From the IMG/VR virus record IMGVR_UViG_3300025138_000013: a stretch of 64,000 nucleotides of DNA; one strand, written 5' to 3'. Below the pieces are notes generated by a model. That model was not told where the DNA came from, did no database searches, and was given only the letters and a program-made list of their open reading frames with translations. The position numbers were made by a program, and so were the translations under genes. Numbering within the stretch: the first letter of the stretch is position 1; the number at the start of each line of letters is the position of its first letter. This document shows positions 1 through 64,000 of the stretch, piece after piece. The stretch is from a virus.

Positions 1-1
1 G

Positions 2-217
2 AGTAGAATCTACGCTCAGTTAGCAAAACAGTTAGTGGAGAATATGTTCTCTAATGGAACTGCAGCTGCATACGGTACATTTGTAATGGAAGGAAATACT
101 GTTACATATGAAAGAATGACTGGGGAAGATGGGGTTGATTTCATACGATTAACAATTGTTACTGAAGATGGGACAACAACGGTTTTAGATATACCAGTTG
201 GTACAGGAAGCTTCTAA
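2..217 (+). CDS. csgF: Curli assembly protein CsgF-like, C-terminal part (5' end outside window)
   Basis: Frame open from base 2 (SRIYAQLAKQLVENMF...GTTTVLDIPVG); resembles the CsgF C-terminus; directly upstream of csgG. Confidence 0.75.
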   Translation, partial: SRIYAQLAKQLVENMFSNGTAAAYGTFVMEGNTVTYERMTGEDGVDFIRLTIVTEDGTTTVLDIPVGTGSF

Positions 218-220
218 ACA

Positions 221-1129
221 ATGAAAAATATACTAACAGTAGGACTACTAGTTCTACTCATGAGTGGATGTGCTAGTATTCCTAGCATGACAGACTCATG
301 TGAATCTCTTGTTATGTCAAGAGTCGGCGAGTGTATTGAGAAGGCAGAAGTAGTAAATATACCTACTTATAGAGAGTTGGCTGATTTACCACCAGCGGAT
401 ACGATGCCAGTTGTTGCAGTATATGCTTTCCAAGATAAGACAGGACAACGTAAGAGTAAAGATGGAATTGCATCTTTCTCTACTGCAGTAACCCAAGGTG
501 CAGAATCATTTTTGATTGATGCCTTGAAGACTGCTGGAAAAGGTAAATGGTTTAGAGTAGTAGAAAGAACAAGTCTCGATGCACTTGTAAGAGAACGTCA
601 GATTATTCGTTCTACTAGAGAAGACTTTGCAAACCAAGAAGGTAATGAAGATGCCCCAACAGGTATTCAACCTTTGCTGTTTGCTGGAATCCTACTGGAA
701 GGTGGGATTATTGGTTATGATACTAACATTGAAAGCGGTGGACGAGGCGCAAGATACTTAGGTATTGGTTCAAGTGTGTCCTACCGTAGAGATGTTATCA
801 CTGTATCGTTGAGAGGAATATCAACTTTAACTGGTGAGATTTTACTGAATGTACAGACTCAGAAGACGATTCTAAGTACAGGCGGTGGTTATGATGTATT
901 CCGCTTCGTTGATATGGATACGAAGTTAGTGGAAATGGAAGATGGTAAAGCAGAGAATGAAGGAGTTACAAGAGCAACTCGTTCTGCAATTGAACTTGCC
1001 GTCTTGGAACTAATATACCAAGGACACGATAGAAGTTTTTGGGTAATTAAAGATGGACATCGTCACCCACATGGAAGTCATGGTAGGAACGAACTACATC
1101 AAATAGAGGAAAAACAGGATGAAGAATAA
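221..1129 (+). CDS. csgG: Curli secretion channel lipoprotein CsgG
   Basis: Lipobox MSGC; CsgG motifs VAVYAFQDKTGQRK, FSTAVTQGA, WFRVVER, ERQIIR, LLEGGIIGYDTNIESGG-GARYLGIG. Confidence 0.95.
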   Translation: MKNILTVGLLVLLMSGCASIPSMTDSCESLVMSRVGECIEKAEVVNIPTYRELADLPPADTMPVVAVYAFQDKTGQRKSKDGIASFSTAVTQGAESFLIDALKTAGKGKWFRVVERTSLDALVRERQIIRSTREDFANQEGNEDAPTGIQPLLFAGILLEGGIIGYDTNIESGGRGARYLGIGSSVSYRRDVITVSLRGISTLTGEILLNVQTQKTILSTGGGYDVFRFVDMDTKLVEMEDGKAENEGVTRATRSAIELAVLELIYQGHDRSFWVIKDGHRHPHGSHGRNELHQIEEKQDEE

Positions 1130-1847
1130 ATTATTACTCATTATGTTAGCATTAGGAATGTCGGGGACAGCATTTGCTGGAGCTGATGATAACGAAGTAT
1201 GGTTACAGCAAAGTGGTACTGCATTGACATTGAACATAACTCAAAAGGGTTATGGAAACAAAGTTGGTGGTAATGACTTTAGTGGAACATCAATAGATAT
1301 GCTATTGACTGGTGCTACTAACAGTTTAACATTAGTACAATTCGGTGACAGTAACAAACTATACGGGCCTTTCATTGCAGATTCTTCAACAGTAAATTTA
1401 ACTTTTACTGGTGACTCTAACTCAATGGATTGGAACGTTGGTTATCAAGGTTCAGCAGATAACTTAAATATGTTAGGAGCTGTTACAGGTTCATCTAACA
1501 CATTTGATATTGATGTTGGATACGACCAGTCTGCAGAATACTTAAACTGGGACTTAGTAGTAGGTGGTTCAAGTAATGTATTCACTACTAAAATAGATAG
1601 TGACAATGCTGTTTGGAATTGGACTGTTACAGGTTCAACAAATGACATCAATACTATACAGGCAGACGCAACAGATAATAAAATTACTGCAGTCTTAACT
1701 GGTTCAGGCAATGATATAGATATCATTCAGAAATCGGGTTCAGATACAGGTTGTCCAAGTGGTCAATCATGTAGTGGTATTATTGATGTAAGCTTCGTGA
1801 CTTCTAATGCAAATATTGACATCGTTCAAAAAGACGATAACGATTAA
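1119..1847 (+). CDS. Secreted curlin-like beta-solenoid repeat protein (CsgA/CsgB-like)
   Basis: Signal peptide; repeated (Q/T)-x-G-x-x-N-x-phi-x-phi units (QKGYGNKV, QFGDSNKL, TGSSNTFDI, TGSTNDINTIQ, TGSGNDIDIIQ); follows csgG. Confidence 0.7.
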   Translation: MKNKLLLIMLALGMSGTAFAGADDNEVWLQQSGTALTLNITQKGYGNKVGGNDFSGTSIDMLLTGATNSLTLVQFGDSNKLYGPFIADSSTVNLTFTGDSNSMDWNVGYQGSADNLNMLGAVTGSSNTFDIDVGYDQSAEYLNWDLVVGGSSNVFTTKIDSDNAVWNWTVTGSTNDINTIQADATDNKITAVLTGSGNDIDIIQKSGSDTGCPSGQSCSGIIDVSFVTSNANIDIVQKDDND

Positions 1848-2946
1848 TTTTCTTCTGATTGGTTCACTTGCAATTGCAGCTGAACCAATTGGTGAAATAG
1901 TCGAACAGAAAGGATACGCGGGTTTACAGAGAGACGGTTCACAAACCATTCTCTCTGCATCCGAGTTACCCGATGTGCTGATGTATGATACAGCACAAAC
2001 CGTAAACGGTAGAATGAAAATCCAGTTCAAAGGAACTGAAGAGTTGGATTTAACAGAACATACCAAGGTTTGGATAGACGAGGTTTATTACGACCCCGAC
2101 CCATCCAAGTCCAAAATGGCCATAAGAATGGCCCAAGGCACCGCCCGATTTGCTTCGGGTTTTGGTGGAAAAATTAAGAAAGCTAACATAAATATAACTA
2201 CCCCGACTGCACAGATAACAGTCAACGGCACCGACTTCACTACAAGTATTGATGAAATCGGAAGGTCACTTGTTATATTGCTGCCTGATAAATGGGGAGC
2301 TCCTTCGGGAAGTATTTTAGTTAGTAATGCAGGCGGTGAAGTATTATTAGATGAGGCCTATCAAGCAACTATGGTTTCTACATATGACTCATCACCAACT
2401 AAACCAGTAGTGGTTAATGGGATTACACCCAGTTTAATTGACAACTTATTCATTGTCAGTCCACCCGACGAGGTGAATGAACAAGTTGCAGAAGAACAAA
2501 GAAGTAACGAGAATGATAGTAACAATGTTCTTGATGTAGATTTCTTAGAGTTCAATGACCTAGAAGAAAATTACTTTGAGGATGATGAATTAGAATACAC
2601 GGAACTCGACAGAGACTTATTAGATGTCGATTTCCTACAGGATTTACTAGATGTTGTCTTGGATATTGACCGTAAGGTTGGTATTGATAGAGAAGTATCT
2701 AATGCCTTCGGAGTGGTTCGTATTGACGGAACTCTACCAGGCTTTGATAAAGACACTCAATACAATACAATTGTAGACAAGGGTCTTGGTCAGATATGGT
2801 TCTACAGGGAAGTGAATGGAATTATTTCTATTAGACTCCCTATATATGCTCAAGCAAGTATTAGAACTATAACAGACGAAAAAGAGTCACTAATTAGGGT
2901 GGGTGATGGTTCGTCTCTAAATATCACCATCACACAAACAAACTAG
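1807..2946 (+). CDS. FecR-domain exported protein with acidic linker (start uncertain)
   Basis: Signal-like N-terminus, then IGEI...D-T-NG...L-EHTKVWID...GTARFASG...ITTPTAQITVNGTDF, typical of the FecR domain. Confidence 0.8.
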   Translation: MQILTSFKKTITINFLLIGSLAIAAEPIGEIVEQKGYAGLQRDGSQTILSASELPDVLMYDTAQTVNGRMKIQFKGTEELDLTEHTKVWIDEVYYDPDPSKSKMAIRMAQGTARFASGFGGKIKKANINITTPTAQITVNGTDFTTSIDEIGRSLVILLPDKWGAPSGSILVSNAGGEVLLDEAYQATMVSTYDSSPTKPVVVNGITPSLIDNLFIVSPPDEVNEQVAEEQRSNENDSNNVLDVDFLEFNDLEENYFEDDELEYTELDRDLLDVDFLQDLLDVVLDIDRKVGIDREVSNAFGVVRIDGTLPGFDKDTQYNTIVDKGLGQIWFYREVNGIISIRLPIYAQASIRTITDEKESLIRVGDGSSLNITITQTN

Positions 2947-2954
2947 GAGAATAT

Positions 2955-3101
2955 ATGAATATCATAGAAAAGTTCCGCTCATGGCATGAAACTCAAATCT
3001 TTGGATTTCAAAAAGCTATGAGACTAGATGACTACCACATGATGTGGTTGGCATTCGGTGAGGGAGTTGTCTTATGTTTATTATTTCAATGGTTATTTTA
3101 A
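2955..3101 (+). CDS. Small membrane protein (48 aa, not in ORF track)
   Basis: AGGAGA RBS; MNIIEKFRSWHETQIFGFQKAMRLDDYHMMWLAFGEGVVLCLLFQWLF; fills the gap in the operon. Confidence 0.65.
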   Translation: MNIIEKFRSWHETQIFGFQKAMRLDDYHMMWLAFGEGVVLCLLFQWLF

Positions 3102-3107
3102 ACTAAA

Positions 3108-3911: not shown

Positions 3912-5770
3912 TGTACTCTTGGAAAGCGTGTCTTGTTACGATACTTGCCCTCTTTGCATTAAAGGTTACTAATCCTTATTTCATAGAGAACATATCTTGG
4001 ACATGGTTCGATTACTTACATCAACAACAAGGAGAATTTTATGTGGATGACATCGTTCTTGTCGACATCGACGAGAAGTCTCTTGAAACTTTTGGACAAT
4101 ATCCTATACGTCGTGGTATTTACCGTGACCTTCTTCTTGATACCCATTATAGCAATACTCATATTTTTGGTATGTTATTTTCTAAACCCGACAGAGACCC
4201 CACACAAGACGCGATATTTGCAGAGGGATTAGTCAACCGTCTCACAATCCTTGGAGCTGCTCCAACATCACAAACTCAAAAAGGTTCTGCACCATTCGTA
4301 GGTAACTCAACGTTTGGGGGTGGTAATCCTAAAGATTTTCTGTGGAACTTCGATGGAATTGTATCGCCCATCGCGATGCTGAAAGATAATACTTATGGGG
4401 TTGGAGTTGTGACGGCTACTCCAGCTGTCACTGGAACACCAAATTTTGATGGGACTACGCGGTCTGTACCCCTATTGGTTACGGCAAACGATGAAGTATA
4501 TCCCTCACTAATGTTAGAAGCTTTACGAGCCTTACGTAACGAACCAAGTTATCAAACTAAAATTACTCCCGAGACTGGTGTAGAGTGGGTTCGGATGGGA
4601 AGAGACAAACCGATAACCACCACTCCAACCAGTGATGTAATGATATCCTATTGGAACAAATTCCATAGAATTTCTGCAGTAGACTTACCCGATTCTAATT
4701 TCGAGAATAAAATACTTGTATGGGGTTTGACTGCAGAGGGTTTGAATAATCCAGTTTCAACCCCAAGGGGAGTAATGTATCCCCATGAAGTGCAAGCGAA
4801 CCTGCTCCAAACCGTTTTGACAGGAGTTCAAATACAACAATCCTACTATCTTGAATCACTAGAGTCTGTTCTTCTTCTGTTAGTTCTGCTAATGATAGTT
4901 GCGATGGTTTACAAGCTTCCCACAGTTCTTTCGGGGACAGGGTTTCTATTACTTGTAGTATGCCAGATTGGCGGGAGTTATTATATTTGGACTTCAGAGC
5001 TCGTTCTTTTCGATACCTTCTTTTCATCGTTGGCCTCCTTAGTAGTTTTCGGTCATGCTTCGTTCAACAAATACTATGTGACTTTCCAAGAAAAGCAACA
5101 AATAAAGAAGCAGTTCCAAAAGTATTTATCTCCCGACATGATTGAAGAGCTACAAAAACACCCCGAAAAATTGAGACTTGGTGGAGATAGAAAGGAGATG
5201 ACCTTCATGTTTATGGACATCATCGGATTCACTCCTATAAGCGAACATTACATGAAACAGGATGACCCCGAAGGATTAGTAGAATTGATTAACAAATTCC
5301 TTGATATGCAGACTAAGATAATCCTAAATAATGGTGGAACCATCGACAAGTACATGGGCGATTGTATAATGAGTTTTTGGAATGCTCCTATGGAGTGTAA
5401 GAACCATGCAGACCTTGCCGTTAAATCAGCACTGGAAGTGCTAGAAGCAACAAAGGAATTAAATGAAGAACTTAAACCTCTCGAACTGCCTCCTATTAAT
5501 GTTGGGATTGGTATCTCTACAGGCGAATGCATCGTTGGAAACATGGGGTCAGAACTTAGATTTGACTATTCCGTCATTGGAGATGCAGTTAACCTCGGAG
5601 CTAGACTCGAAGGACAAACGAGAAATTATGATGGGGTGGACTTGTTGTTATCACAAAGAACTTATAAACAGTGTAAGGTTGGAGCATACATTGAAGTCGA
5701 TAGAATACACGTCAAGGGGAAAAGTGAAAAGGTCACTATCTACACTCCAATTAAAGGAACCCATAACTGA
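3911..5770 (+). CDS. CHASE2-domain membrane adenylate cyclase (class III)
   Basis: N-terminal TM, CHASE2 (IVLVDIDEKSL..GQYP..R; TPRGVMYPHEVQA), 3 TMs, cyclase core FMDIIGFT, IDKYMGDCIM, GNMGS..RFDYSVIGDAVNLGARLEG. Confidence 0.93.
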   Translation: MYSWKACLVTILALFALKVTNPYFIENISWTWFDYLHQQQGEFYVDDIVLVDIDEKSLETFGQYPIRRGIYRDLLLDTHYSNTHIFGMLFSKPDRDPTQDAIFAEGLVNRLTILGAAPTSQTQKGSAPFVGNSTFGGGNPKDFLWNFDGIVSPIAMLKDNTYGVGVVTATPAVTGTPNFDGTTRSVPLLVTANDEVYPSLMLEALRALRNEPSYQTKITPETGVEWVRMGRDKPITTTPTSDVMISYWNKFHRISAVDLPDSNFENKILVWGLTAEGLNNPVSTPRGVMYPHEVQANLLQTVLTGVQIQQSYYLESLESVLLLLVLLMIVAMVYKLPTVLSGTGFLLLVVCQIGGSYYIWTSELVLFDTFFSSLASLVVFGHASFNKYYVTFQEKQQIKKQFQKYLSPDMIEELQKHPEKLRLGGDRKEMTFMFMDIIGFTPISEHYMKQDDPEGLVELINKFLDMQTKIILNNGGTIDKYMGDCIMSFWNAPMECKNHADLAVKSALEVLEATKELNEELKPLELPPINVGIGISTGECIVGNMGSELRFDYSVIGDAVNLGARLEGQTRNYDGVDLLLSQRTYKQCKVGAYIEVDRIHVKGKSEKVTIYTPIKGTHN

Positions 5771-6062
5771 TTTTCAATGGGGTACATTTGTATCACTTCA
5801 ACTTCTTGATATGTACACTACCTATAAAGGATTGCAATACGATTGTGTATTTGAAACGAATCCTCTCTTTGGTGAAAGACCTTCAGTAATGACAATGGGT
5901 GTAAGAAAGATTGTTATACTTGCCCCAGCAATAGTTTCTGAACAGAACAATCAAACATTAAGTATAGAAGACATGAGAGATATTAACCTTCTTATGGGTT
6001 TAGTTGTCCTTAACAATGCAAGTATTTCAAACAAATCATCAAAAAGATGCAATAAATTGTAA
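5724..6062 (+). CDS. Hypothetical membrane protein (start uncertain; GTG at 5724 chosen)
   Basis: 3' part of track ORF 5463..6062; LQLLDMYTTYKGL...ETNPLFG motif and hydrophobic segments. Confidence 0.5.
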   Translation: MKRSLSTLQLKEPITDFQWGTFVSLQLLDMYTTYKGLQYDCVFETNPLFGERPSVMTMGVRKIVILAPAIVSEQNNQTLSIEDMRDINLLMGLVVLNNASISNKSSKRCNKL

Positions 6063-6068
6063 AAACCC

Positions 6069-6096
6069 CTTGAAATTTCTAAATCAGTCCCCATAT
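6069..6096 (+). promoter_or_regulatory. Sigma32 (RpoH)-type heat-shock promoter of hsp20
   Basis: CTTGAAA (6069-6075), 13-nt spacer, CCCCATAT (6089-6096): matches the proteobacterial sigma32 consensus. Confidence 0.85.
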
Positions 6097-6112
6097 ATGC
6101 TATATATACTAT

Positions 6113-6169
6113 TGTAATTGCCTTCGGGGATTACATAACATAACTTGCTTAATAAAGGAGAAAACTATG
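6113..6169 (+). promoter_or_regulatory. ROSE-like RNA thermometer in hsp20 5' UTR
   Basis: Hairpin TGTAAT..ccTTCGgg..ATTACA (6113-6135), then CTTGCT (6144-6149) able to pair with SD AGGAG (6156-6160) with a bulged G, the U(U/C)GCU ROSE hallmark. Confidence 0.75.
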
Positions 6170-6604
6170 ACAAGTAAACAGCTCGGAGACTTCGATGTCT
6201 TCAATTTCGGGAAATCATTCCCATTCGCAATCGGGTTCGACAGAACTCTTCAACTATTAGAACGTGCCAATCAGTCACCGACTAATACAAACTATCCACC
6301 TTACAATATTGTAAAACACGATGCAGAGAACTTCAGTATCGAACTTGCATTAGCTGGATTTGATAAAAAGGACATCACAATCTCAAAAGAGAAAGAGGTT
6401 CTTAATATCGAAGGTAAACAAAAGGAAGGGGAAAACCTTGAGTACGTCCATAGAGGACTTGCAGCTCGTTCATTCAAAAGAACATTCACACTTGCAGACG
6501 ACATTGTCGTTAAAGGTGCAGACATGAAGAATGGTATTTTGAGTGTATCTTTGGAAAGGATTATACCCGAAGAAGATAAACCCCAAAAAATCAAAATTTC
6601 TTAA
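6167..6604 (+). CDS. hsp20: Small heat-shock protein Hsp20 (IbpA-like)
   Basis: IGFDR, NYPPYNI, IELALAGF, YVHRGLAARSFKRTFTLAD, ADMKNGIL. Confidence 0.95.
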   Translation: MTSKQLGDFDVFNFGKSFPFAIGFDRTLQLLERANQSPTNTNYPPYNIVKHDAENFSIELALAGFDKKDITISKEKEVLNIEGKQKEGENLEYVHRGLAARSFKRTFTLADDIVVKGADMKNGILSVSLERIIPEEDKPQKIKIS

Positions 6605-6617
6605 CAAAGCCTCTTAC

Positions 6618-6652: not shown

Positions 6653-6675
6653 ATTATTATGGAGTATAGATTATT

Positions 6676-7203
6676 ATGACAGAAGAAAGAAGAATGGGAT
6701 TAGAAATTATCGAAGGGGAAACTAAAGTACCCGAAGTAGTCCTACCTCAGAGAATTGATGGTGAATTCGTAACACTAGACACACAACAACAGTTTGCTGG
6801 TAAAAGAGTAATTGTATTTGGTTTGCCTGGCGCATTCACTCCAACATGTTCAACACAACAATTGCCTAGCTTTGATGAGAGATTTGAAGAGTTTAGAGAA
6901 AAGGGAATTGATGAGATTTATTGTGTATCAGTGAATGATACATTCGTAATGAACTCATGGTTCGAATCATTAGGTATCAAAAATGTTTACCCTCTTCCCG
7001 ATGGTAACGGTGAGTTTACTCACTTGATTGGTGCAGAATGTTCTAAATCAAATCTTGGTTTTGGATATAGGTCTTGGAGATATGCAGTTGTAATCAACGA
7101 TGGTGTAATTGAAAAAGCATTCATTGAAGATGGCTATCAAGACAATGCAGAGTCCGACCCTTATGAGACTTCAAGCCCAGAAAATATATTGAAAAATCTT
7201 TAG
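6676..7203 (+). CDS. Peroxiredoxin (Prx5/type II family)
   Basis: FGLPGAFTPTCS, CVSVNDTFVM, PDGNGEFT, RSWRYA. Confidence 0.93.
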   Translation: MTEERRMGLEIIEGETKVPEVVLPQRIDGEFVTLDTQQQFAGKRVIVFGLPGAFTPTCSTQQLPSFDERFEEFREKGIDEIYCVSVNDTFVMNSWFESLGIKNVYPLPDGNGEFTHLIGAECSKSNLGFGYRSWRYAVVINDGVIEKAFIEDGYQDNAESDPYETSSPENILKNL

Positions 7204-7247: not shown

Positions 7248-8525
7248 ATGATGAGTGATAATAAATATTTTCAATACAATCTAGAAGACCTTCACCGTAA
7301 CAGTGAAAGTAAACAGTTTAATTACATTACTTTCTTTGCAGGCGGTGGTGGTTCTTCATGTGGTTACAAACTAGCAGGTGGTGACGTTCGTTACATGAAC
7401 GAGTTCCAACAGTTACATGTTGACACCTACCTAGAAAACTTCCCTAACACAGTACATGAATGTAGAGACATCAAAGAAGTCACTGCAGAAGGTATCATGG
7501 AGCTTAGTGGACTTAAGAAATACGAATTAGATATCATGGATGGGTCACCACCTTGTCCACCATTTTCTATGGCAGGTTCCAAGAAAGAAGGATGGAACCA
7601 AGAGAAGATGGCATATGGTATGAAGCAACAGAACATTGAAGACCTAACATGGGAAATGATTAGGATTGCCGAAGGGTTAATGCCTAAAGTTATAATATGT
7701 GAGAACGTGAAAGGTCTTTCAATGGACTATGCAAGAGACCATCTAAACAGGATGGTAAACGATTTCGAAGCACTAGGATACTCAGTGACTTGGAAAATCA
7801 TGAAGGGACATCAGCATGGTGTACCTCAGAAGAGAGAAAGAGTATTCATGGTTGGTGTACGTGACGATGTACTTGAAGGTATTGGAATGCCTTGGATGTG
7901 CATGTCATCTGTATTCCCCGACCCAGTAAAAGAATTTGCATCTATAGAAGATGCAATCCATGATTTAGAAACCGATGAAGATAACATGAAAGATGCAGCT
8001 TATCTAGAGACTGCCATGGACGATTCTTCAAAAGGTCATTGGGTAAATGGATTTGATGTTCATCCCGATGAAAAGTTTGAAGGTTGTGTTCCATGTAAAG
8101 GTCTTACACCAGTATTAAAAGAAAGAGACAACCAAGCATATACCTCTATTGGAGACCATATTGTAAAACCATGGTTCCAAGAGAACATTGCACTAGGACA
8201 TATCAAACCCGAAGATGAGAAACATTCTTACTATATGTCAAGAATAGTTCCTAAACATCTACCAGCTCATTCATTGACTGAACAAGGTTGTCAACCTAAG
8301 TTTATGGGTGGTAATCATTTCCACCACAGTGGTAAAAGAATTTACACACCAAAAGAAATGGTAAGATTAATGACTCTACCAAACGACTATAAAATGACTG
8401 GTGATTACAATGATAAAGGTGCAAGAATAGGATTGATGGTAGCACCATTGTGTATGTACTACTTAGTTGAAAACATTAAAGGACAAATATTAGAACCATG
8501 GAATTCACTGCAACAAAAGACTTAG
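7248..8525 (+). CDS. DNA (cytosine-5)-methyltransferase
   Basis: Motif I FFAGGGG, IV GSPPCPPFS, VI ENVKG, VIII PQKRERVF. Confidence 0.93.
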   Translation: MMSDNKYFQYNLEDLHRNSESKQFNYITFFAGGGGSSCGYKLAGGDVRYMNEFQQLHVDTYLENFPNTVHECRDIKEVTAEGIMELSGLKKYELDIMDGSPPCPPFSMAGSKKEGWNQEKMAYGMKQQNIEDLTWEMIRIAEGLMPKVIICENVKGLSMDYARDHLNRMVNDFEALGYSVTWKIMKGHQHGVPQKRERVFMVGVRDDVLEGIGMPWMCMSSVFPDPVKEFASIEDAIHDLETDEDNMKDAAYLETAMDDSSKGHWVNGFDVHPDEKFEGCVPCKGLTPVLKERDNQAYTSIGDHIVKPWFQENIALGHIKPEDEKHSYYMSRIVPKHLPAHSLTEQGCQPKFMGGNHFHHSGKRIYTPKEMVRLMTLPNDYKMTGDYNDKGARIGLMVAPLCMYYLVENIKGQILEPWNSLQQKT

Positions 8526-9499
8526 GATTTAAAGAAACATTCAAAGAATGGAACGGTAAGTATCTTACTGAAGATTCTTATGATACTGTTATATCATCCA
8601 TTGGTGTCGAGGATGACATCATTAAAATCTATAAACCTCATGGTACACTCATGGGTGAAACCTTACTTGCATGTATTGTAAAGAGAGCATATACAGGTAC
8701 GACTTATCAAACAGTTAAAGACACTTTGTTCTCTATCGATGATACATCTACAATGAGAGCAAATGCAGCCGGGCCTATCGACCATGAAGAGATGAAGGCA
8801 AAAGGATTAATCGAAGGAAAGGACTATGTCCTAAGAACTCCAAACAGTTACTACCCACTTAAGAAGAACGGTGAGTTCAATCGTATTGCAGAAGCAAACG
8901 AGATTCATTCAGTTCTAATCGGGTATAAACGTGGCAGATTCACAGGAATGATTAAGGCAAGTGGATGGATGGATAAGAAATCCAACAAAGAAAAGTTTGA
9001 AACCTTATCACAGATTGCAAACGTCAATGAACAAGCATTGAAGACTGCAGTTCCCGAAGTATACAACTTACAAAAAACTTTTGCAGATGAATGTATAGAT
9101 GAGAAGTATCACATTGGTGGTTCACCGATGACAGCTTTATCTGCAAACAAATATTCAACTGGTGGGACTGCAAAGATGTCTGCACATTTGGATGGAAAAG
9201 ATTTAGAGTTCGGAATGACAACTATGTGTGTCTTCCGTATTGGAGAATTTGGGGGTGCATACTTATGTTTCCCTAGATATGGTATTGCTATTGAAGCAGA
9301 TGATGGAGACGTACTGATTGCAGATTCAAATGAATTGCACGGTGTATCACCTATCACTGGTGAAGGAGTAAGGTTATCATGTGTTGCATATTGTGATGAA
9401 CATGTTGCAACTAAAGGGAGAGCTGGAAAGACTGAGAATCCTATCGGCCCACATGCTGGAAAGTATGAGGAGAAAGGTTCACTCGACAGCTTTTTCTAG
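8498..9499 (+). CDS. TET/JBP-family 5-methylpyrimidine dioxygenase
   Basis: HLDGKD (HxD), GGAYLCFPRYGIAI, GDVLIAD, ELHGVSPI, RLSCVAY; overlaps the C5-MTase gene. Confidence 0.85.
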   Translation: MEFTATKDLGFKETFKEWNGKYLTEDSYDTVISSIGVEDDIIKIYKPHGTLMGETLLACIVKRAYTGTTYQTVKDTLFSIDDTSTMRANAAGPIDHEEMKAKGLIEGKDYVLRTPNSYYPLKKNGEFNRIAEANEIHSVLIGYKRGRFTGMIKASGWMDKKSNKEKFETLSQIANVNEQALKTAVPEVYNLQKTFADECIDEKYHIGGSPMTALSANKYSTGGTAKMSAHLDGKDLEFGMTTMCVFRIGEFGGAYLCFPRYGIAIEADDGDVLIADSNELHGVSPITGEGVRLSCVAYCDEHVATKGRAGKTENPIGPHAGKYEEKGSLDSFF

Positions 9500-9584: not shown

Positions 9585-10721
9585 ATGACAACACAAAATC
9601 ACCTGTTCGCAGGTTTAAAAAAGAGCTACGATATAGAACTCACCCGAGAACTATGTCCACCCAAAGAAACTTATCAAACTTGTAAATTCAAGAAAAGACT
9701 TGTAGTACACAAGGATAAGATTCACATCATTGACCCTATTACAGGGGAACCATTGCAACCGAGAGAAGAAATCAATCTCACTCAAAATGTTATTGAGATT
9801 AAAACTTCATTCAAGTACAGAGGTTGGTTACATTCAGAAGAACCACTATTTGTACAAGTCGCTGCTGATGGAAACTTCATTCTAAGAAGTGGATTCAACA
9901 GATACAAAGCTGCAACGGAAAGTGGTTGGGAATATCTATTAGTAGATGTGTATGAAGATGCACCAGTCCAAAAGGACAACATTGCATTTAAGTATGTTTG
10001 TAACAATACTAACCTACCATCTAAACCTAATAAAGATATTGACTTCATTAGAGGTGTAGTAGAAGCGATTGATGCAAATGCAATCAATCAAGAAGTCGAA
10101 GCAGAGATAATCTCATTCTTAAAACAAATCACATCAACAGATGATGGTATGCGTTTAAAGACAGATGAAGAGATTGTCAACTATGTCGATGTAACGGAAG
10201 TAAATGACGATGGTTCAGAGAGTACTATTCAAGAACTATCATCTTCATGTTTACTATATAAAGTCTATAGACAAAGAGGAAAGAACAGAAACATTCTACC
10301 ATTAGATGGTAAGGGTGCAAACCAAATTCTAAACTCTCTTAAAAAAGGATGGGCTGGAGCAAGAAACAAAGATGTTACTGAGTTAGGTTATTGTTTTGAG
10401 AAGAAGACTACATGTCACAGGATATTGTGGGATGGTATGAAACTTTATAGTAAATATCAAACACCTATCATGTTATATGGTTATGTTGAGAATCCCTCAT
10501 CAATGACTTTAAAGTCTGATAGAATAGAAACACTTGCAAGATACGAGTGGTTCATAGAAGAATGTGTAAGAAGATTTACGGATTCTCTTGACTATCACAA
10601 GATGGGACTTAACTTCATGGAACTTGAATGGAAGTTCAGAGAAATCTTTCAGTGGGGTGGATTTATACCTCAAGATAAAACACCACATTGTGATGAAAGT
10701 GGAAGGATAGTAGAACTATGA
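9585..10721 (+). CDS. ParB/Srx-like N-terminal domain protein
   Basis: QPREE...SFKYRGW...PLFV....GNFILRSGFNRYKAA resembles the ParB GxxR box; lies in the modification cluster. Confidence 0.55.
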   Translation: MTTQNHLFAGLKKSYDIELTRELCPPKETYQTCKFKKRLVVHKDKIHIIDPITGEPLQPREEINLTQNVIEIKTSFKYRGWLHSEEPLFVQVAADGNFILRSGFNRYKAATESGWEYLLVDVYEDAPVQKDNIAFKYVCNNTNLPSKPNKDIDFIRGVVEAIDANAINQEVEAEIISFLKQITSTDDGMRLKTDEEIVNYVDVTEVNDDGSESTIQELSSSCLLYKVYRQRGKNRNILPLDGKGANQILNSLKKGWAGARNKDVTELGYCFEKKTTCHRILWDGMKLYSKYQTPIMLYGYVENPSSMTLKSDRIETLARYEWFIEECVRRFTDSLDYHKMGLNFMELEWKFREIFQWGGFIPQDKTPHCDESGRIVEL

Positions 10722-11254
10722 TTATAATGGTTGGTGGAGTTCCATGTTCGGGAAAGTCAACTCTCATGAGAAGACTTATCTCTAGGTTAGATGAACCCAA
10801 TCTAATTGAACCGATGAAACTATTTAAGTGCCAAGAACATGGTGACATATTAGTAGTCGGTCAATATCCCGAGGGAGAGACATTCGGCGGAACTGATAAG
10901 CTCTCTCACGGTTCTATCCCACAGTTTAGAGAGTTCATTGAAGCAATGAACATTGCATACAAACATGTTCTAATAGAAGGTGATAGATACTTTAGAGGAG
11001 TAGACATAGAATGGTTGATGCAAAACCATGAAGCATTAGTTTACGTTCTAACAGTAGACATATCCGAAGAACACAATCGTCACACAGAACGTGGAGACAC
11101 ACAATCAGAAGTATGGCTGAAGGGAAGACGAACACAGATAAATAACATACTAACAAACATGAATCTTTTAGGACAACTAAATATTCGTGATAATGATTCA
11201 ATAGAATCATCTATGAAAATAGAAGAGGAGATATATGCCAAAATTATTCAATAA
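10718..11254 (+). CDS. P-loop nucleotide kinase of the type linked to DNA base modification
   Basis: GGVPCSGKST Walker A; G-Y..GETFGGTDKLS; LIEGDR. Confidence 0.75.
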   Translation: MIIMVGGVPCSGKSTLMRRLISRLDEPNLIEPMKLFKCQEHGDILVVGQYPEGETFGGTDKLSHGSIPQFREFIEAMNIAYKHVLIEGDRYFRGVDIEWLMQNHEALVYVLTVDISEEHNRHTERGDTQSEVWLKGRRTQINNILTNMNLLGQLNIRDNDSIESSMKIEEEIYAKIIQ

Positions 11255-17410: not shown

Positions 17411-18755
17411 AGAGTTTACAAGGAAGGTAATACCATTCCTTAAGGAAGAGTATTTCTCCGAGTCGGACGAGAAGACCGTGTTCAACGAAGTAGGTTCCTA
17501 TTTCGATAAGTACACTAAACCACCTACAGTGGAAGCACTTCTCATAAATCTAGATAACAACTCGTCACTCAATGACAGTGTTTTATCTAGTGCAAAAACT
17601 ATTGTAGATAGTATTAGTAAGGACAAAGAAGACACACCAATCGATTGGTTGGTGGAAGAGACTGAAAAGTGGTGTCAAGATAGAGCAATCTATATTGCAG
17701 TCATGGATAGTATCGAAGTCATCGACAAAAAGTCCCAACGCTCGACTGGGGAAATACCCGACCTTTTAAAAGAAGCTTTATCTGTATCGTTTGACACTAA
17801 TATCGGTCACGATTTCATTGAGAACTCAGACGATAGATTTGAATTCTATCACACTGAAGAAGAGAAACTTCCATTCGATTTAGAATACTTCAACAAAGTC
17901 ACCAAAGGTGGATTACCAAACAAAACTTTAAACATATGTCTTGCTGGTACTGGTGTTGGTAAGTCATTATTCATGTGTCATATGGCATCTGCAAACTTAA
18001 TGATGAACAAGAATGTGTTATACATTACATTAGAAATGTCAGAGGAAAGGATTGCAGAAAGAATCGATGCAAACACATTGAATATTCCTATGCAAGATTT
18101 ACCCGACTTATCTAAGAAAATGTTTGATAAGAAGATTGACAAGATTAAAGAAAAGACTAAAGGTAAACTTATCGTAAAGGAATATCCAACTGCATCAGCT
18201 CATGTAGGTCACTTCAGACATCTACTTCAAGAGTTGAATATCAAGAAAGATTTTAAACCCGATATGATTTATATCGACTATCTAAATATATGTTCAAGTG
18301 CAAGAGTCAAGCCAGGAGCTGGTGCAAACTCATACACATTAGTGAAGAGTATTGCAGAAGAACTTAGAGGACTTGCAGTTGAGTTTGATGTACCAATCAT
18401 GAGTGCAACACAAACAACACGTAGTGGTTATGGTTCTACAGATGTGGAACTAACAGATACTTCAGAATCATTTGGATTACCAGCGACTGCAGACTTTATG
18501 TTTGCACTGATTACATCCGATGAACTGGAAGAACTAGACCAAATGGTAGTAAAACAATTAAAGAATAGATACAATGACCCAACCGTATTTAAAAGGTTTG
18601 TCATAGGTGTCGACAGAAGTAGAATGAAACTCTATGACTGTGAACAAGAAGCACAGGAAGAACTCATTGACTCAGCAGTCAACGATGATGTTCCAGTGTT
18701 TGATAGAGGAAGAAATGATGGACAGAAACGAGATTTCTCAGAATTCAAGGTCTGA
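17358..18755 (+). CDS. 41: Replicative DNA helicase (T4 gp41)
   Basis: [53 protein letters not shown]. Confidence 0.96.
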
Positions 18756-21245: not shown

Positions 21246-22528
21246 TGAAAGAATTCGGTAAATTTTTAACAGAAGCAAAAGACAAGGGTGTTGTATTTAC
21301 ATTCGGTAGATTCAACCCACCCACAACAGGTCATGCAAAATTAGTAGACAAGCTTAAAAAAGAAACCAGCGGTGGTTATCAACCAATGCTTTTCTCATCT
21401 CATTCAAACGACAAAAAGAAAAATCCATTAGACCATAAACTCAAAGTAAAATATCTTAAGAAATTCTTTGGTAAGATAGTTGCAGATGTACAAGCACGTA
21501 CTGTATTTGAGATTGCAAATGAATTACATAAACAAAATTTCAAACGTGTTAAGATGGTAGTTGGTTCAGACAGAATTAAAGAATTTGAAATGTTACTGAA
21601 GAAGTACAACGGAGTTAAAGCAAGGCACGGCTACTATAAATTTGATGATATACAAATTGTATCAGCAGGGGAGAGAGACCCCGATGCAGATGACCTAAGT
21701 GGAATGAGTGCATCTAAATTAAGAGCTCTTGCAGAAGTCGGTGATTTTAAAGCATTTGCACAAGGTGTTCCGACTAGGAATAAAAAAGATATTGAACAAC
21801 TATACAAAGACATCCGTAGAGGGATGGGAATTGTTGAGTCATCTTTACCCGACTATATGATTGAAGATTTAATTACTGAAGGAGTCTATGACCAAGGAAC
21901 ATTCAAAGCAGTGTTTTTCTCGGGTGGCCCAGGCAGTGGTAAGTCAACAGTGGTACAAAAGTTATCACTAAAGGCATTAGGACTGAAGATGGTAAACACC
22001 GATGCAGCTTTTGAAAATGGATTAAAAAAGGCAGGAATGTCACTTGATTTACGTGGTGCAGACTTTGATAAAGTTGACCCTATTCGTGCAAAAGCAAAGA
22101 GTATCACTACAAAGAATATGAACAACTATATTGGTGGTAGACTTGGAATGATATTTGATACTACTAGTGCAAACATTGCTAAAGTACAGAAATATAAGAA
22201 GTCATTAGATGCATTAGGATATGAATCTAAAATGATATACGTAAGTGCATCACTAGACAATGCACAAAAGAGAAATGCATCAAGACCTAGAAAATTACCA
22301 GCTGAGATAGTAAAATCAGATTGGGAAAAATCTAGAAAGAATGCAGCTGCACTGAAAAAAATCTTTAGTAGAGATTATATAGAAGTCACAAACGATGAAG
22401 GATTAAAGGAACTAGATAAAGCTGCAACTAAGATGTACACAAAATTACTTGGTTGGACTGGTGCATTCCCAAGTAATAAGAAAGCACTTGCATGGAAACA
22501 AGCAGAACTGGATGCTAAAAAACGATAA
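21245..22528 (+). CDS. HIGH-type nucleotidyltransferase fused to a P-loop (zeta-toxin/AAA_33-like) kinase
   Basis: FGRFNPPTTGH, VVGSDR, SAGERDPD, MSASKLR; then GGPGSGKST, VNTD, IFDTT. Confidence 0.85.
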   Translation: MKEFGKFLTEAKDKGVVFTFGRFNPPTTGHAKLVDKLKKETSGGYQPMLFSSHSNDKKKNPLDHKLKVKYLKKFFGKIVADVQARTVFEIANELHKQNFKRVKMVVGSDRIKEFEMLLKKYNGVKARHGYYKFDDIQIVSAGERDPDADDLSGMSASKLRALAEVGDFKAFAQGVPTRNKKDIEQLYKDIRRGMGIVESSLPDYMIEDLITEGVYDQGTFKAVFFSGGPGSGKSTVVQKLSLKALGLKMVNTDAAFENGLKKAGMSLDLRGADFDKVDPIRAKAKSITTKNMNNYIGGRLGMIFDTTSANIAKVQKYKKSLDALGYESKMIYVSASLDNAQKRNASRPRKLPAEIVKSDWEKSRKNAAALKKIFSRDYIEVTNDEGLKELDKAATKMYTKLLGWTGAFPSNKKALAWKQAELDAKKR

Positions 22529-22536: not shown

Positions 22537-23487
22537 ATGGACATATTAGAATCTATACTTAACGAAAGAAAGGTCAAACAAGACAAAGACATTGAAGACC
22601 GTAAAGGTACTCAACCATCCAAGTATTACGCAAAGGATGCTGATGGTGACGAAATGTCTAAGTCTACCAAACAAAAACGTGCAGCTCATTTTGCACAGAA
22701 AAAAGACGGCCCTGCACCTGGCGACCATGATGCAGATACTAAACCTTCCAAACATACTAAAAAGTACAAAGATATGTACGAAGATGCTGGTAAGTCACTT
22801 GCAAAGAAAGCTGATAAATCGGGGATATCAAAAGGTATTCTACAACAGGTTTATAACAGAGGTGTGGCTGCATGGAAGACTGGTCATAGGCCAGGCACTA
22901 CTCCAGAGCAGTGGGGACATGCAAGAGTAAATTCATTCATCACCAAAGGTAAAGGAACATGGGGTGGTGCAGACAAAGACCTTGCAAAGAAAGCTGGTGC
23001 ATCTGAATCAGTCCAAGAAGGTAAATTAGTTACTAGTGCTCAAGACATCATTGCTCTAATTTTGAAAAAAGTTGGTCAAAAAATGGAAGATGAGTTTACA
23101 AAGAATCCCGAAAAAGGTATTGGCCTTATCAATACAATCGGTGCAATGGTTAAACATAAAGTTACCAATAAGAAACAAGAGAAAGGTAAACTATTTCTTA
23201 AATTCGGTGACAATCTAGAGGGTGATTTATTAGAAGATGCAGCCGTAGATGCAGCGGAGTTAAAAGCAAAACAAGCAGGTGAACTCGAACGTCTTAAACT
23301 AAGACAAGAGGACGAACTCGAAGCATTGACTAAAAGACACGAAAGAGAAACAGAAAGAGTCGATGGTCAGAAAGAGAAAGAGACTGCAGACAAACAAATT
23401 CAATCAAAACGTGATGCAGACAGAAAGAAAGCAGAAACGAAATCAGAAAGTTATAAAACTATTTTAAAGGTAAGGGGAATAAAATGA
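22537..23487 (+). CDS. Hypothetical, probable virion internal protein
   Basis: Late promoter at 22525; highly charged; xxE junction motifs. Confidence 0.7.
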   Translation: MDILESILNERKVKQDKDIEDRKGTQPSKYYAKDADGDEMSKSTKQKRAAHFAQKKDGPAPGDHDADTKPSKHTKKYKDMYEDAGKSLAKKADKSGISKGILQQVYNRGVAAWKTGHRPGTTPEQWGHARVNSFITKGKGTWGGADKDLAKKAGASESVQEGKLVTSAQDIIALILKKVGQKMEDEFTKNPEKGIGLINTIGAMVKHKVTNKKQEKGKLFLKFGDNLEGDLLEDAAVDAAELKAKQAGELERLKLRQEDELEALTKRHERETERVDGQKEKETADKQIQSKRDADRKKAETKSESYKTILKVRGIK

Positions 23488-23978
23488 GTGGGAACAAACA
23501 TGATAACGGAGTCCATGAAGTTGGAACAGACGAAACCAAAAAGGCATATCAAGAAGATACTCCAGGCCAACAGGTAGAGGAATATCTATCACAGGTCAAG
23601 GTTGTCAATGAAGAGAGACAAAAGAAACACTTCTCTACTAAGTACCCTAATCCATTAAAAGGATTCCCTTACAATGAAGAGAAACTAGAAGAAGCATGTT
23701 GGGATGGTTACGTTCAGAAAGGATTCAAAACAAAAAATGGTAAACAAGTACCAAACTGTGTCCCTATAGGTGAAGAAATACAAGAAGCATTTAGACCTAA
23801 CCCCGAATTAAGAGATGTTAAGAAACTTGATAAAATGCTAGAGAGTGCATACAAAAGTATGAACAAATTACAAAATGGTAAATCCCTCTATCTGAGAAAA
23901 TGCAATGATGGTATTGTAGACGCTAGAAGAGCTTTAGACGAATATGTTGATGCTATTGAGAGCGGAAAGCTTGACTAA
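23484..23978 (+). CDS. Hypothetical protein (CWDGY...VPNCV motif)
   Basis: Overlapping ORF in the late block. Confidence 0.7.
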   Translation: MSGNKHDNGVHEVGTDETKKAYQEDTPGQQVEEYLSQVKVVNEERQKKHFSTKYPNPLKGFPYNEEKLEEACWDGYVQKGFKTKNGKQVPNCVPIGEEIQEAFRPNPELRDVKKLDKMLESAYKSMNKLQNGKSLYLRKCNDGIVDARRALDEYVDAIESGKLD

Positions 23979-47199: not shown

Positions 47200-47613
47200 A
47201 TGAGTCATATTATTGACACATTGAAGACGGTGTTGGTCACGAGAGCAACAGATTTTAACGGAAGGTCAGATAGACCCGAGTACTGGTGGTTTACATTATA
47301 TGCCATAATTGTATTTGGTTTACTTGCACTAGTAGATAACTATGTACTAGGATTTACATTCTTTAGTATACTAGAACCATGGGGTGAGATGCAAGAGAGC
47401 GGAGTGTTAGTATTGTTATGGACACTTGGAACTCTTGTACAAAGTATATCAGTAACAACAAGAAGATTACATGACAGAGGTCATAGTGGTTGGTGGCAGT
47501 TAGGTTTTATAGTACCAGGCTTAAACTTTATAGTTTTTTACTGGTTAGTAAGAGATGCAAAGGATACAACCGAAGCATTAACATATGAGAATCCATACGG
47601 ATTAAGAGGATAA
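47200..47613 (+). CDS. DUF805-family inner-membrane protein
   Basis: FNGRSDRPEYWWF, RRLHDRGHSGWW, NPYG. Confidence 0.88.
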   Translation: MSHIIDTLKTVLVTRATDFNGRSDRPEYWWFTLYAIIVFGLLALVDNYVLGFTFFSILEPWGEMQESGVLVLLWTLGTLVQSISVTTRRLHDRGHSGWWQLGFIVPGLNFIVFYWLVRDAKDTTEALTYENPYGLRG

Positions 47614-56321: not shown

Positions 56322-57700
56322 AATCATTTCAAGAATTAATAGTAGAAGAAGACGTTAAGAAGTCAGACCCTTATCGTCTTGTTGTTATCGCAGAACGTCC
56401 TAAGAAACAATCAAAGAAATCTACCAGTGGTAAGATAGTTGGTGTTGCAGAAAAAATGGGTATGGATGTTTACAACGTTCGTGTCAATGGTGCATACTTA
56501 GAACGTGATGATGAGTCTGGCGTTATCTCTATTCACAATGCAGATGATGAGAAAGGATTTGAGATTGATGCAGACACATTAGTTATGATTCGTGGTGCAG
56601 TAACAACTAAAGATTCCTACCTCGATTTAATCTCTCAGATTGAACGCTACGGCATTGCAACGTGCAACCCTAGGGAATGTATCGAAGTTTGTTCAGACAA
56701 GTTTAGAACGTACCTAAGACTGCAAGAGATAGGTCTAAACCAACCACGTACCGTATTGATTCCAAACGATGAACCCGAGACCGTAGATAGAGCTCACGAA
56801 GCATTAGATAATAAGTTCCCTATGGTACTTAAAACATTACAGGGTTCTAAAGGTGTGGGTGTTCTATTAATCGAAACAGAACGTTCATTACAATCACAGG
56901 TCAGCTTGATTTATAAGATTGACCCTTACTGTGATATTCTATTACAAGAGTATATCGAATCAGATTACGATGTACGTGTTGTCATTGTCAACAGAGAAAT
57001 TGTTGGTGCAATGAGACGAAATAAAATTACAGATGATTTCAGAAGTAATGTATCCCAAGGTGCAGATGCACAATCAGTTACATTAACAGAGATGGAAAAA
57101 GATGTTTGTCTAAGAGCTAGCAAAGCCGTCAACGGACAATGGTGTGGTGTCGACTTTATTCCTAGCAAAAATAGAAAGACCGAACCACCTTACCTATTAG
57201 AAGTAAATCATTCGCCAGGCACTGAAGGAATCTCTAGTGTTATCGGTGAGGATATTGTTAAGATGGTTCTTAAGATTTACAAAGACAGAGACATATGGAA
57301 GAAGTCACCAACAGAGTGTGGTGTATTAGAAACCATCGAAGTCGAAGGTCAAGAAATGACAGTGAAGTTGGACACAGGTAATTCAGTTACAGCTTGTTCA
57401 CTTCATGCAGAAGATTTAAAGATTAATGGTAAGATAGTTACATGGACAACGGAAGGTGTTAAGTATAAGAAACCACTAAAGAGAATGGTTACTTTATTAA
57501 AACCAGCTGAAGACAGACCAGTCGTAGAACTAGAACTAAATTTTCTAAACACTATATACGAACAAGAAGTTAGTTTAGATACTAGAGGGGCAATACCTTT
57601 TCTTGCAAACCGTGACTTGATGCAACGTGCAAACCTTATGATAAATCCAGCACGTAAGTTTATGATTACAAACAAACGTGATGAGAAGGACGACAGTTAA
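56318..57700 (+). CDS. RimK-like ATP-grasp ligase fused to a retropepsin-like protease domain
   Basis: DKFRTY, KTLQGSKGVGV, QEYI..DYDVRV, FRSNVSQG, LLEVNHSPG; C-terminal KLDTGN. Confidence 0.88.
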   Translation: MKSFQELIVEEDVKKSDPYRLVVIAERPKKQSKKSTSGKIVGVAEKMGMDVYNVRVNGAYLERDDESGVISIHNADDEKGFEIDADTLVMIRGAVTTKDSYLDLISQIERYGIATCNPRECIEVCSDKFRTYLRLQEIGLNQPRTVLIPNDEPETVDRAHEALDNKFPMVLKTLQGSKGVGVLLIETERSLQSQVSLIYKIDPYCDILLQEYIESDYDVRVVIVNREIVGAMRRNKITDDFRSNVSQGADAQSVTLTEMEKDVCLRASKAVNGQWCGVDFIPSKNRKTEPPYLLEVNHSPGTEGISSVIGEDIVKMVLKIYKDRDIWKKSPTECGVLETIEVEGQEMTVKLDTGNSVTACSLHAEDLKINGKIVTWTTEGVKYKKPLKRMVTLLKPAEDRPVVELELNFLNTIYEQEVSLDTRGAIPFLANRDLMQRANLMINPARKFMITNKRDEKDDS

Positions 57701-63359: not shown

Positions 63360-63362
63360 ATA
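63355..63362 (+). promoter_or_regulatory. T4 late promoter TATAAATA
   Basis: Exact consensus; ATG 5 nt downstream. Confidence 0.7.
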
Positions 63363-63367
63363 CTACT

Positions 63368-63613
63368 ATGACAGACTATAACGATTTCGGATTTACAGCG
63401 ATGGATGCAGATGAACTTGCAGCCATTGATACTAAGATTATTGAGAAGACTACTACTGCAACGGAAGTAATCAACAAACTTGATAATTTTGTAAGACCCC
63501 TACTTGAGAATCTTGCAAAGGATTCAGACAAGGACTATATCTATTGGCCTAATAGAGTAGACATTATAAACGCCAAATTAAAAGAATTAGACGACATACA
63601 AAAAAGTCTATAA
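63368..63613 (+). CDS. Small hypothetical protein
   Basis: DFGFTAMD...PLLENL.KD.DKDYIYWPNR. Confidence 0.75.
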   Translation: MTDYNDFGFTAMDADELAAIDTKIIEKTTTATEVINKLDNFVRPLLENLAKDSDKDYIYWPNRVDIINAKLKELDDIQKSL

Positions 63614-63684
63614 AGGGCCTATACAGCACCCCTAGCTTTTTGTTATACTGGACTCCAATAAAGAAATAAACAAAGGAGTTTATA

Positions 63685-63957
63685 ATGGAAAACAGTATTT
63701 ACACATCACCCGAATCTCAAATGAAGATTGTAAAACTTGGACGTGAAATTATCACGGCATGTGAAATGGGAGAACTACACGCTGGGAATGATGAAGATTC
63801 TCTAAGACTATGGAATGCAGCGGTCACTGCTGGAAACAAGATGACCACAATAGGATTAACCTATTCTAGGTTCAATGGAATATCCGACTTAACTAAAACT
63901 GAACAGACAGCCGTGCAAGAATTTCTAATTGCAAAAGAGGCCTTGACAGCAGCCTAA
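63685..63957 (+). CDS. Hypothetical early protein
   Basis: AAGGAG RBS; promoter-like TATACA-N18-TATACT at 63620-63649. Confidence 0.7.
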   Translation: MENSIYTSPESQMKIVKLGREIITACEMGELHAGNDEDSLRLWNAAVTAGNKMTTIGLTYSRFNGISDLTKTEQTAVQEFLIAKEALTAA

Positions 63958-63972
63958 GCTTTTTGGTATACT
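63943..63972 (+). promoter_or_regulatory. Early promoter for a gene beyond the window
   Basis: gccTTGACA-N18-TATACT. Confidence 0.7.
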
Positions 63973-64000
63973 ATGTATATAATGAAAAATCAAGGAGACA

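Follow-up and report, generated by a model that had tools for sequence, protein, structure and literature searches.

The DNA analyzed here, hereafter the window, is the 64-kb stretch (64,000 nucleotides; 37.4% G+C, with nearly all genes on the + strand) of IMG/VR virus record IMGVR_UViG_3300025138_000013. It is DNA of a T4-like marine myophage, and this study concerns its avoidance of short DNA words together with a gene pair that may underlie the pattern, a C5-cytosine DNA methyltransferase (MTase) and a TET/JBP-family dioxygenase. The closest DNA matches of the window were Methylophilales phage Melnitz and cyanomyophages, and its DNA polymerase showed 44–47% identity to the polymerases of phage HTVC008M and cyanophages.

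The modification locus comprises four genes on the + strand, flanked by hsp20 and redoxin genes on one side and by lysozyme and polymerase genes on the other. The Hsp20 gene (6167..6604, +; PF00011, E 2e-18) and the redoxin/AhpC-like gene (6676..7203, +; PF08534, E 4e-28) form part of the neighborhood described for clade I/A clusters of MTases and TETs (PMC8256090). They are followed by the MTase gene (7248..8525, +; 425 aa; PF00145, E 1e-47, covering profile positions 1-323/324), in whose product the alignment revealed the motifs FAGGGG, SPPCPPFS (with the catalytic Pro-Cys), ENV and QKRER, as well as a 22-aa insert in the target recognition domain (TRD)/variable region relative to the Melnitz MTase. 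The co-oriented TET gene (8498..9499, +; PF12851, E 4e-13; 52% identity to the Melnitz orthologue) shares 28 bases with the 3' end of the gene for the MTase. The MTase/TET pair invoked by the original prediction is indeed present; a PDB sequence search with the TET protein gave no significant match. The third gene (9585..10721, +), which some relatives lack or have replaced, encodes 378 aa that could be placed in no known family. The earlier description of this protein as ParB-like found no Pfam or PHROG match and retains a weak ParB_N lead from a protein atlas. The fourth gene (10718..11254, +; PF18751, Ploopntkinase3, E 5e-7) encodes a P-loop nucleotide kinase (P-LK), a candidate kinase of 5-hydroxymethylcytosine (5hmC), a role proposed in PMC8256090.

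Word usage was compared with a null in which synonymous codons were permuted within each of 97 called open reading frames, with protein sequence and codon usage preserved (300 replicates, with the shuffled codons covering 92% of the window). GATC was absent (0 observed vs 174.7 expected; shuffle minimum 149), as was GGWCC (0 vs 31.2), while GGSCC, which holds GCC, was enriched about twofold (29 vs 14.2). CCGG occurred once against 29.8 expected, at 8769..8772 in the context GCCGGGCC. CCWGG was reduced to 10 sites from an expected 29.5, and this reduction fell entirely on sites without a GpC flank: HCCWGGD (H, not G; D, not C) was found 0 times vs 23.0 expected (shuffle minimum 13), with GCCWGG (5 vs 3.0) and CCWGGC (8 vs 3.6) at or above expectation. 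All ten CCWGG sites thus overlapped a GpC, which is far from chance because the shuffles gave about 22%. Seven were flanked on one side, by a following C (CCAGG at 2737..2741, 21929..21933, 23562..23566 and 47515..47519; CCTGG at 22717..22721) or by a preceding G (CCAGG at 18312..18316; CCTGG at 37778..37782), and three on both (GCCTGGC, with the site at 6826..6830; GCCAGGC, at 22891..22895 and 57215..57219). These counts bore out the absence of GATC and GGWCC and the ten GpC-overlapping CCWGG sites claimed by the original prediction, down to the positions of the latter, and the shuffle split by GpC overlap that it had proposed showed the observation to be real and stronger than first described. 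The depletion went beyond amino-acid and codon-usage constraints, which is the mark of restriction-site avoidance.

Related words behaved similarly. WCCWGA (1 vs 57) and TCWGGW (2 vs 63) were nearly lost. The earlier impression that GpC palindromes are plentiful held for TGCA (595 vs 363; a z of about +19 relative to the spread of the shuffles), GGCC (48 vs 35) and AGCT (159 vs 168), but not for GCGC (7, vs 15 from the shuffle and 77 from base composition), GTGCAC (0, vs 7.0 from the shuffle and 12.7 under a Markov model) or GCATGC (0 vs 4.3). An unbiased scan covering all 3- to 6-mers further revealed a loss of GCAGCA/TGCTGC (3 vs 36) and an excess of GCAGCT (43 vs 19). Relative to base composition, GCA/TGC was about 1.25-fold over, with GCT, GCC and GCG at about 0.57, 0.47 and 0.23. 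Across positions 1..64000, then, GATC, GGWCC, CCGG, GTGCAC and the H-flanked forms of CCWGG, CCWGA, CCTCC and CCCGT are purged, TGCA is enriched, and GCT, GCC and GCG are depleted.

The dependence on flanking bases was examined by splitting all C-initial words by their 5' base on both strands and comparing the counts with the shuffle mean. HCCWGA was found 6 times vs 152 expected, HCCTCC 0 vs 56 and HCCCGT 0 vs 21.5, whereas the G-flanked forms stayed close to expectation (GCCWGA, 17 vs 18.7; GCCTCC, 3 vs 5.5; GCCCGT, 3 vs 2.7). With A, C or T in front, these three words were purged; rescue came from G alone. The 23 CCWGA/TCWGG sites consisted of 17 GCCWGA, 3 GCCCWGA, 2 CCWGAGC and 1 without a nearby GpC. 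In CCWGAGC, a GCT arises on the opposite strand adjoining the site; with the exception of these two sites, every shield in the window reads G-C-C. GATC and GGWCC, whose Cs can never be preceded by G, left zero survivors. The three copies of CCTCC were all G-flanked (5034..5038, +; 5489, GCCTCC; 51959, GGAGGC). As a side observation, GGAGG/CCTCC on both strands amounted to 3 copies vs 61 expected, and the full Shine-Dalgarno core GGAGG occurred once in 64 kb; its near-absence means that ribosome-binding sites must take shorter or variant forms.

These preferences were apparent in codon choice. The earlier reading that Gly-Pro is written GGC-CCN or GGG-CCN was correct: GGA and GGT, which make up 87% of Gly codons, were used 0 times before Pro, as compared with 12 GGC and 5 GGG. 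Likewise, its claims that Pro-Glu/Asp mostly uses CCC-GA and Ser-Gly often TCG-GG agreed with the counts (83 of 92 cases, with CCC being 21% of Pro codons, and 17 of 22 TCN-Gly pairs, with TCG at 7%, respectively). GAT was never followed by C, as opposed to 134 occurrences of GAC-C. Since any Pro codon followed by GG gives CCNGG, Pro-Gly can be encoded only with a shield, and the rare GGC codon was found in 8 of the 10 Pro-Gly pairs. Those 10 pairs compare with 44 expected in the window genes, a ratio of 0.23; the corresponding ratios were 0.58 for Melnitz and 1.13 for HTVC008M. Lacking a synonymous escape, the dipeptide itself is depleted. Gly-Pro was depleted as well, to 0.39 of expectation. 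DNA-word avoidance is therefore visible in the protein sequence.

The same pattern recurred in relatives carrying the MTase. From 80 IMG/VR loci with the MTase at 55–99% identity we derived 26 non-redundant loci (448 kb), in which observed over expected counts were 0/197 for HCCWGGD and 94/107 for GCCWGG, 5/295 for GGWCC and 189/169 for GGSCC, 0/310 for HCCGGD and 0/46 for GTGCAC; all 14 CCGG sites were G-flanked. TGCA was 2.76-fold enriched, and 26 of 68 CCWGG sites were flanked on both sides, vs about 10% by a rough estimate from base composition. Avoidance of GATC, CCWGA, CCTCC and CCCGT varied between lineages, as would be expected for changing host nucleases. Lineages that avoid these words kept the rescue by G (CCTCC, H 0/135 vs G 8/26; CCWGA, 7/140 vs 11/33; CCCGT, 3/138 vs 6/28), and did so with GCC at about half of its base-composition expectation. 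A comparable profile was obtained for the first 50 kb of Melnitz, a phage of OM43 whose MTase and TET are 53% and 52% identical to those of the window: HCCWGGD 0/23, GCCWGG 22/12, GGWCC 0/34, HCCTCC 1/37 vs GCCTCC 6/7, and TGCA 2.5-fold.

In order to define which GpC contexts shield, relatives with this word signature (783 kb of signature-positive DNA) were compared with those without it. GTGCAC was found 4 times vs 150 Markov-expected in the pooled signature-positive DNA. Surviving GCATGC sites in the relatives were never TGCATGCA (0 of 10, vs a chance share of about 48% given the TGCA preference); each had a flank making GCT or GCC on one strand. TGCA was about 2.8-fold enriched in signature-positive DNA, and GCT, GCC and GCG stood at 0.47, 0.46 and 0.24 of base-composition expectation, vs 0.75, 1.0 and 0.71 in signature-negative relatives. 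GpC contexts open to modification on a single strand only were two- to fivefold below the signature-negative relatives (AGCA/TGCT 0.52 and GGCA/TGCC 0.37, joined by AGCG/CGCT 0.27 and GGCG/CGCC 0.20 if the mark is GCY). Contexts that can be modified on both strands (AGCT 1.45, GGCC 1.26, AGCC/GGCT 1.11) were kept, as was TGCA (2.06), which can be modified on neither. Both in the window and in the signature-positive relatives, the symmetric GpC tetranucleotides TGCA, AGCT and GGCC were favored. The Ala-Ala shift from GCAGCA to GCAGCT fits with avoidance of one-strand contexts, a depletion that could be due to mutation at 5-methylcytosine (5mC), to a cost of modification or to nucleases reading hemi-modified sites. 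Among C-to-T polymorphisms polarized in close relatives, a derived T was present at 2 of the 36 GCB sites with enough lineages, a small number of sites. A simple multiplicative model for NGCN contexts did not fit, with palindromic contexts being in excess, and neither GCY nor GCB gave a full account of the tetranucleotides (exceptions under one or the other being AGCC/GGCT and TGCG/CGCA). The abundance of TGCA is better read as preference for the sole common unmodifiable GpC context than as tolerance of shielded sites. Hence, the shield is GC[C/T], perhaps also GCG, and not every GpC.

This footprint was compared with the enzyme class. Burke et al. (2021) expressed 5mC methyltransferases from marine virome MTase/TET clusters in E. 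coli, and the preference for GpC on which the original prediction relied is borne out there (PMC8256090). According to that study, most of these MTases target GC[C/T] and clade IIb targets GCN, whereas the clade I enzymes MT43 and MT88 methylate GC[C/T/G] and not GCA, with the TETs following suit. Clade I/A clusters have HSP, redoxin, and P-LK or glycosyltransferase neighbors and their MTases carry an extra TRD insert, while clade II/B clusters have a DNA polymerase upstream (PMC8256090). In the window we found the C5-MTase domain, a TET within five genes, the HSP/redoxin/P-LK neighborhood and the TRD insert; the Melnitz MTase, lying directly after the polymerase as in clade II, served as reference for the insert. 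Its clade I assignment, based on gene order and TRD insert, predicts GC[C/T/G]-not-GCA specificity for the window enzyme, and the genomic footprint, in which GCC and GCT shield and GCA does not, agrees with what this class predicts. The likeness to the clade I/A clusters extends to the overlapping MTase and TET genes and the upstream hsp20 and redoxin genes, and that to contig 88 of the same authors includes the P-loop kinase downstream. The evidence differs in kind, enzyme activity in E. coli having been measured there and the phage genome itself being read here; the searched text of Burke et al. 2021 does not address the phages' own word usage.

The best solved-structure match of the window MTase was PDB 8YF3 (E 1e-66, 39% identity overall), which is SpCmoX, a GC-specific C5-carboxymethyltransferase of Synechococcus phage S-B43, a phage whose virion DNA proved, on nanopore sequencing, to be modified at GC (PMC12783734). 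Both proteins share the SPPC motif and SpCmoX also targets GC. Nevertheless, an identity of the window MTase as a CmoX was rejected, given that Arg350 of SpCmoX (VGRMV), which binds carboxy-S-adenosylmethionine, is replaced by Leu (IGLMV). The window enzyme is partnered by a TET instead of CmoA (the synthase of that cofactor) and the ligase CmoY, neither of which was present among the ten proteins of 6167-12625, the only stretch scanned. CCWGG and GGWCC, in turn, were not avoided in 50 kb of S-B43. In that same DNA (L234, 1-50000), GC was depleted to 0.67, TGCA was 1.8-fold enriched and CCGG was found 3 times vs 72 expected, all three copies being G-flanked.

The explanation we consider probable is a post-replicative cytosine mark at GC[C/T], possibly GCG, but not GCA, with the MTase, TET and P-LK as its candidate source and a genome recoded around it. 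The sole candidate enzymes in the window are the clade I C5-MTase, the TET, which would convert 5mC to 5hmC, and the P-LK, probably elaborating 5hmC. As such a mark would cover about 6% of cytosines, it could not protect every nuclease site, and the genome would therefore be recoded around it. Words without a modifiable C (GATC, GGWCC, GTGCAC) would be purged, and CC-initial words (CCWGG, CCWGA, CCTCC, CCCGT and, less so, CCGG) would survive where a preceding G makes their first C part of a modified GCC, with synonymous codons supplying this G or a matching C (CCW-GGC, GGC-CCN, xxG-CCW). What is observed are the word statistics, a flank switch that recurs in relatives, the genes of the locus and the agreement with published specificity, and these suggest that patchy hypermodification protects the phage's own DNA. 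We infer that selection rather than mutation drives the word pattern.

Several points weigh against this explanation. We infer, from the genome, that the mark lies on the virion DNA of this phage; its blocking of host nucleases, and in particular that a modified outer C would suffice for it, is likewise a step beyond the counts. G-flanked CCGG was still depleted (1 vs 8.3 in the window, 17/169 pooled), so that the rescue by G is weaker for CCGG than for the other words. AGCT, which holds GCT on both strands, was low in Melnitz (41/161) and in several relatives. The cultured control, HTVC008M, has another host besides lacking the enzyme pair, and is thus suggestive, not clean. Finally, many relatives of the same polymerase clade with other cassettes at the locus, described below, showed the full signature including the rescue by G, none of their five contigs (31–59 kb, 17–33% complete) contained a PF00145 gene, and on the polymerase tree the signature followed clades, not cassette type.

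The slot between redoxin and lysozyme/polymerase (7248-11254 in the window) is a swap site for DNA-modification cassettes, of which three types were seen: the C5-MTase and TET with the P-LK and, optionally, the 378-aa protein; a single 508-aa protein (ALT; L136, 7217-8743); and a DruA-like protein with a cytidylyltransferase, a 457-aa protein and a TET-associated glycosyltransferase (TAGT; L115, 3837-7557). The ALT protein of L136 carries a LDTSCGWGD S-adenosylmethionine-binding motif and the motif IV FTSPPYF, conserved in ALT proteins as LDTSxGWGDRL and FTSPPYFSTE, and gave a sub-threshold match to Pfam N6_N4_Mtase; its SPPY motif IV we take to be typical of cytosine-N4 methylases. A PDB sequence search with ALT yielded no significant relative, and pairwise comparison of ALT, the 457-aa protein and the window 378-aa protein revealed no similarity. 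ALT comprises at least four subfamilies, mutually about 55% identical, which track signature-positive vs signature-negative phages, the more distant ones occurring in signature-negative phages near HTVC008M.

Given the signature in these cassette-swapped relatives, the C5-MTase/TET pair is not the sole possible source of the shield, and the link between the two cannot be called exclusive, which is why we rate that link as probable and no higher. Either an equivalent GCY mark, a C5-MTase elsewhere in the genome or another shield source could account for the other-cassette signature. The leading alternative, which we regard as unlikely, is that the shield is real but made by another or an additional GCY-specific modification common to the clade, with the MTase/TET pair as one interchangeable add-on. 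The ALT and TAGT loci bearing the same signature speak for it, as do the five such contigs without PF00145, the long MTase-bearing contigs without the 508-aa gene, and the interspersion of cassette types within the signature-positive clade of the polymerase tree. Yet the five contigs are far from complete, the architecture of the window MTase is that of a class whose measured GC[C/T/G] specificity is exactly the footprint, ALT with its N4-methylase-type motif could be a functional replacement, and no further candidate gene for a clade-wide mark was identified. A broader version of the mark-and-recoding explanation is tentative: an entire clade of abundant marine myophages would have recoded genome and proteome around a GCY shield, purging every unshieldable word, avoiding one-strand contexts and swapping non-homologous cassettes of the same GCY specificity at one hot spot. 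If true, convergent GCY specificity is predicted for the unrelated 508-aa enzyme.

The original prediction itself had held that sites containing or overlapping a GpC are shielded and tolerated, with unshielded sites purged, a reading equivalent to modification of all GpC, as by an M.CviPI-like enzyme (GpCN). Its idea that the specificity can be read from the genome works, although the answer is GCY or GCB instead of any GpC. Survivors were nearly all GpC-overlapping and GATC and GGWCC were purged, as it had stated; the ten of ten CCWGG sites, the common GGCC, AGCT and TGCA and the GCN methylation by clade IIb enzymes (PMC8256090) are compatible with it too. However, sites offering GCA alone were purged as well (GTGCAC, 0 vs 12.7 in the window and 4 vs 150 pooled; GCATGC, 0 vs 4.3, with survivors elsewhere all GCB-flanked; GCAGCA/TGCTGC, 3 vs 36), clade I enzymes leave GCA alone, and the enrichment of TGCA with depletion of GCB is hard to explain in this manner. 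The genomic footprint, which is no assay, does not have GCA protected as an M.CviPI-type enzyme would, and modification of every GpC is accordingly very improbable.

The proposed comparison with relatives lacking the MTase/TET pair gave a divided result, since HTVC008M was without the signature and the other-cassette relatives carried it. The complete genome of HTVC008M, a phage of SAR11, contained no homologue of the window MTase or TET, and its pattern was the opposite: GGWCC 73/75, GGSCC 1/37, GGCC 22/112, HCCWGGD 112/52, TGCA 1.2-fold and GC dinucleotide 0.98. In this genome (L152-L154), all 83 GATC sites were GGATC or GATCC, with HGATCD at 0 vs 69% expected, and 41 of 51 CCGG sites were G-flanked, a pattern suggestive of another shield tied to the flank, or of nuclease specificities, in a phage without a C5-MTase/TET pair. 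Such flank-dependent avoidance without this MTase lends something to the view that shielding is absent altogether and that flank dependence reflects longer nuclease specificities or a context-dependent bias of mutation or repair, but we give this view very little weight, because at least five unrelated words share G as their one rescuing flank with A, C and T purged, we know of no nuclease that reads "not G", rescue proceeds through synonymous choice such as the rare GGC in Pro-Gly pairs, many lineages show zeros where 23 to 197 sites were expected, and the avoided words change between close relatives while the rescue rule remains constant.

Two further traits of the phage group were recorded. 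A block of curli csgF/csgG, curlin-like and CHASE2 adenylate-cyclase genes (window 1-5770) is common to HTVC008M (L152, 7562-13807), and the CHASE2 cyclase is also present in the relative L136, the block being a conserved trait of the group. Near-identical DNA to window positions 6001-16000 (70–99% of sampled words) was present in 20 marine/seawater metagenome runs from 13 studies (2017-2024), which indicates that the phage group is common, though 5 of the 20 runs may represent the sample from which the window came.

In its classical form, restriction-site avoidance by phages, for instance of GATC and of palindromes, was reportedly described by Sharp in 1986 and by Rusinov and coworkers in 2018. 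The present case resembles it in the depletion of short nuclease-type words against a codon-aware expectation and in a word set that differs by lineage; it differs in depending on a single flanking base by which a site for modification arises, and in extending to dipeptides (Pro-Gly, 0.23). The glucosyl-hydroxymethylcytosine of T-even phages is likewise a 5hmC-based chemistry against restriction, but there every C is substituted ahead of replication and avoidance is unnecessary, whereas in the proposed view about 6% of the Cs of this phage would be modified after replication and the remaining sites purged. Bacillus phages SPbeta, phi3T and rho11 encode self-protecting multispecific C5-methylases. 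There, too, a phage C5-MTase protects its own sites and spares avoidance, yet those enzymes copy whole sites (GGCC, GCNGC), whereas here a three-base mark would protect by partial overlap. The enzyme family and restriction avoidance are thus each already known; for conditional, flank-rescued avoidance with its effect on the proteome, no earlier report was found in the literature searched, although this is not proof of absence.

A follow-up preprint (10.1101/2023.12.21.572611) from those who characterized phage MTase/TET/glycosyltransferase pathways doubted that so restricted a modification affords protection from restriction and left open whether phage DNA is the target. Because survival of sites is confined to places where the mark would be set, the footprint provides evolutionary evidence on both questions, that is, on protection by a GpC-limited mark and on its action on phage DNA. 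The specificity of a modification, including its 3' base preference, is readable from uncultured viral contigs, and host nuclease specificities become predictable (GATC, GGWCC, CCWGG, CCGG, GTGCAC, CCWGA, CCTCC, CCCGT), some of them universal and some lineage-specific. As the depletion of Pro-Gly indicates, defense pressure on DNA words can reshape the proteins of these phages.

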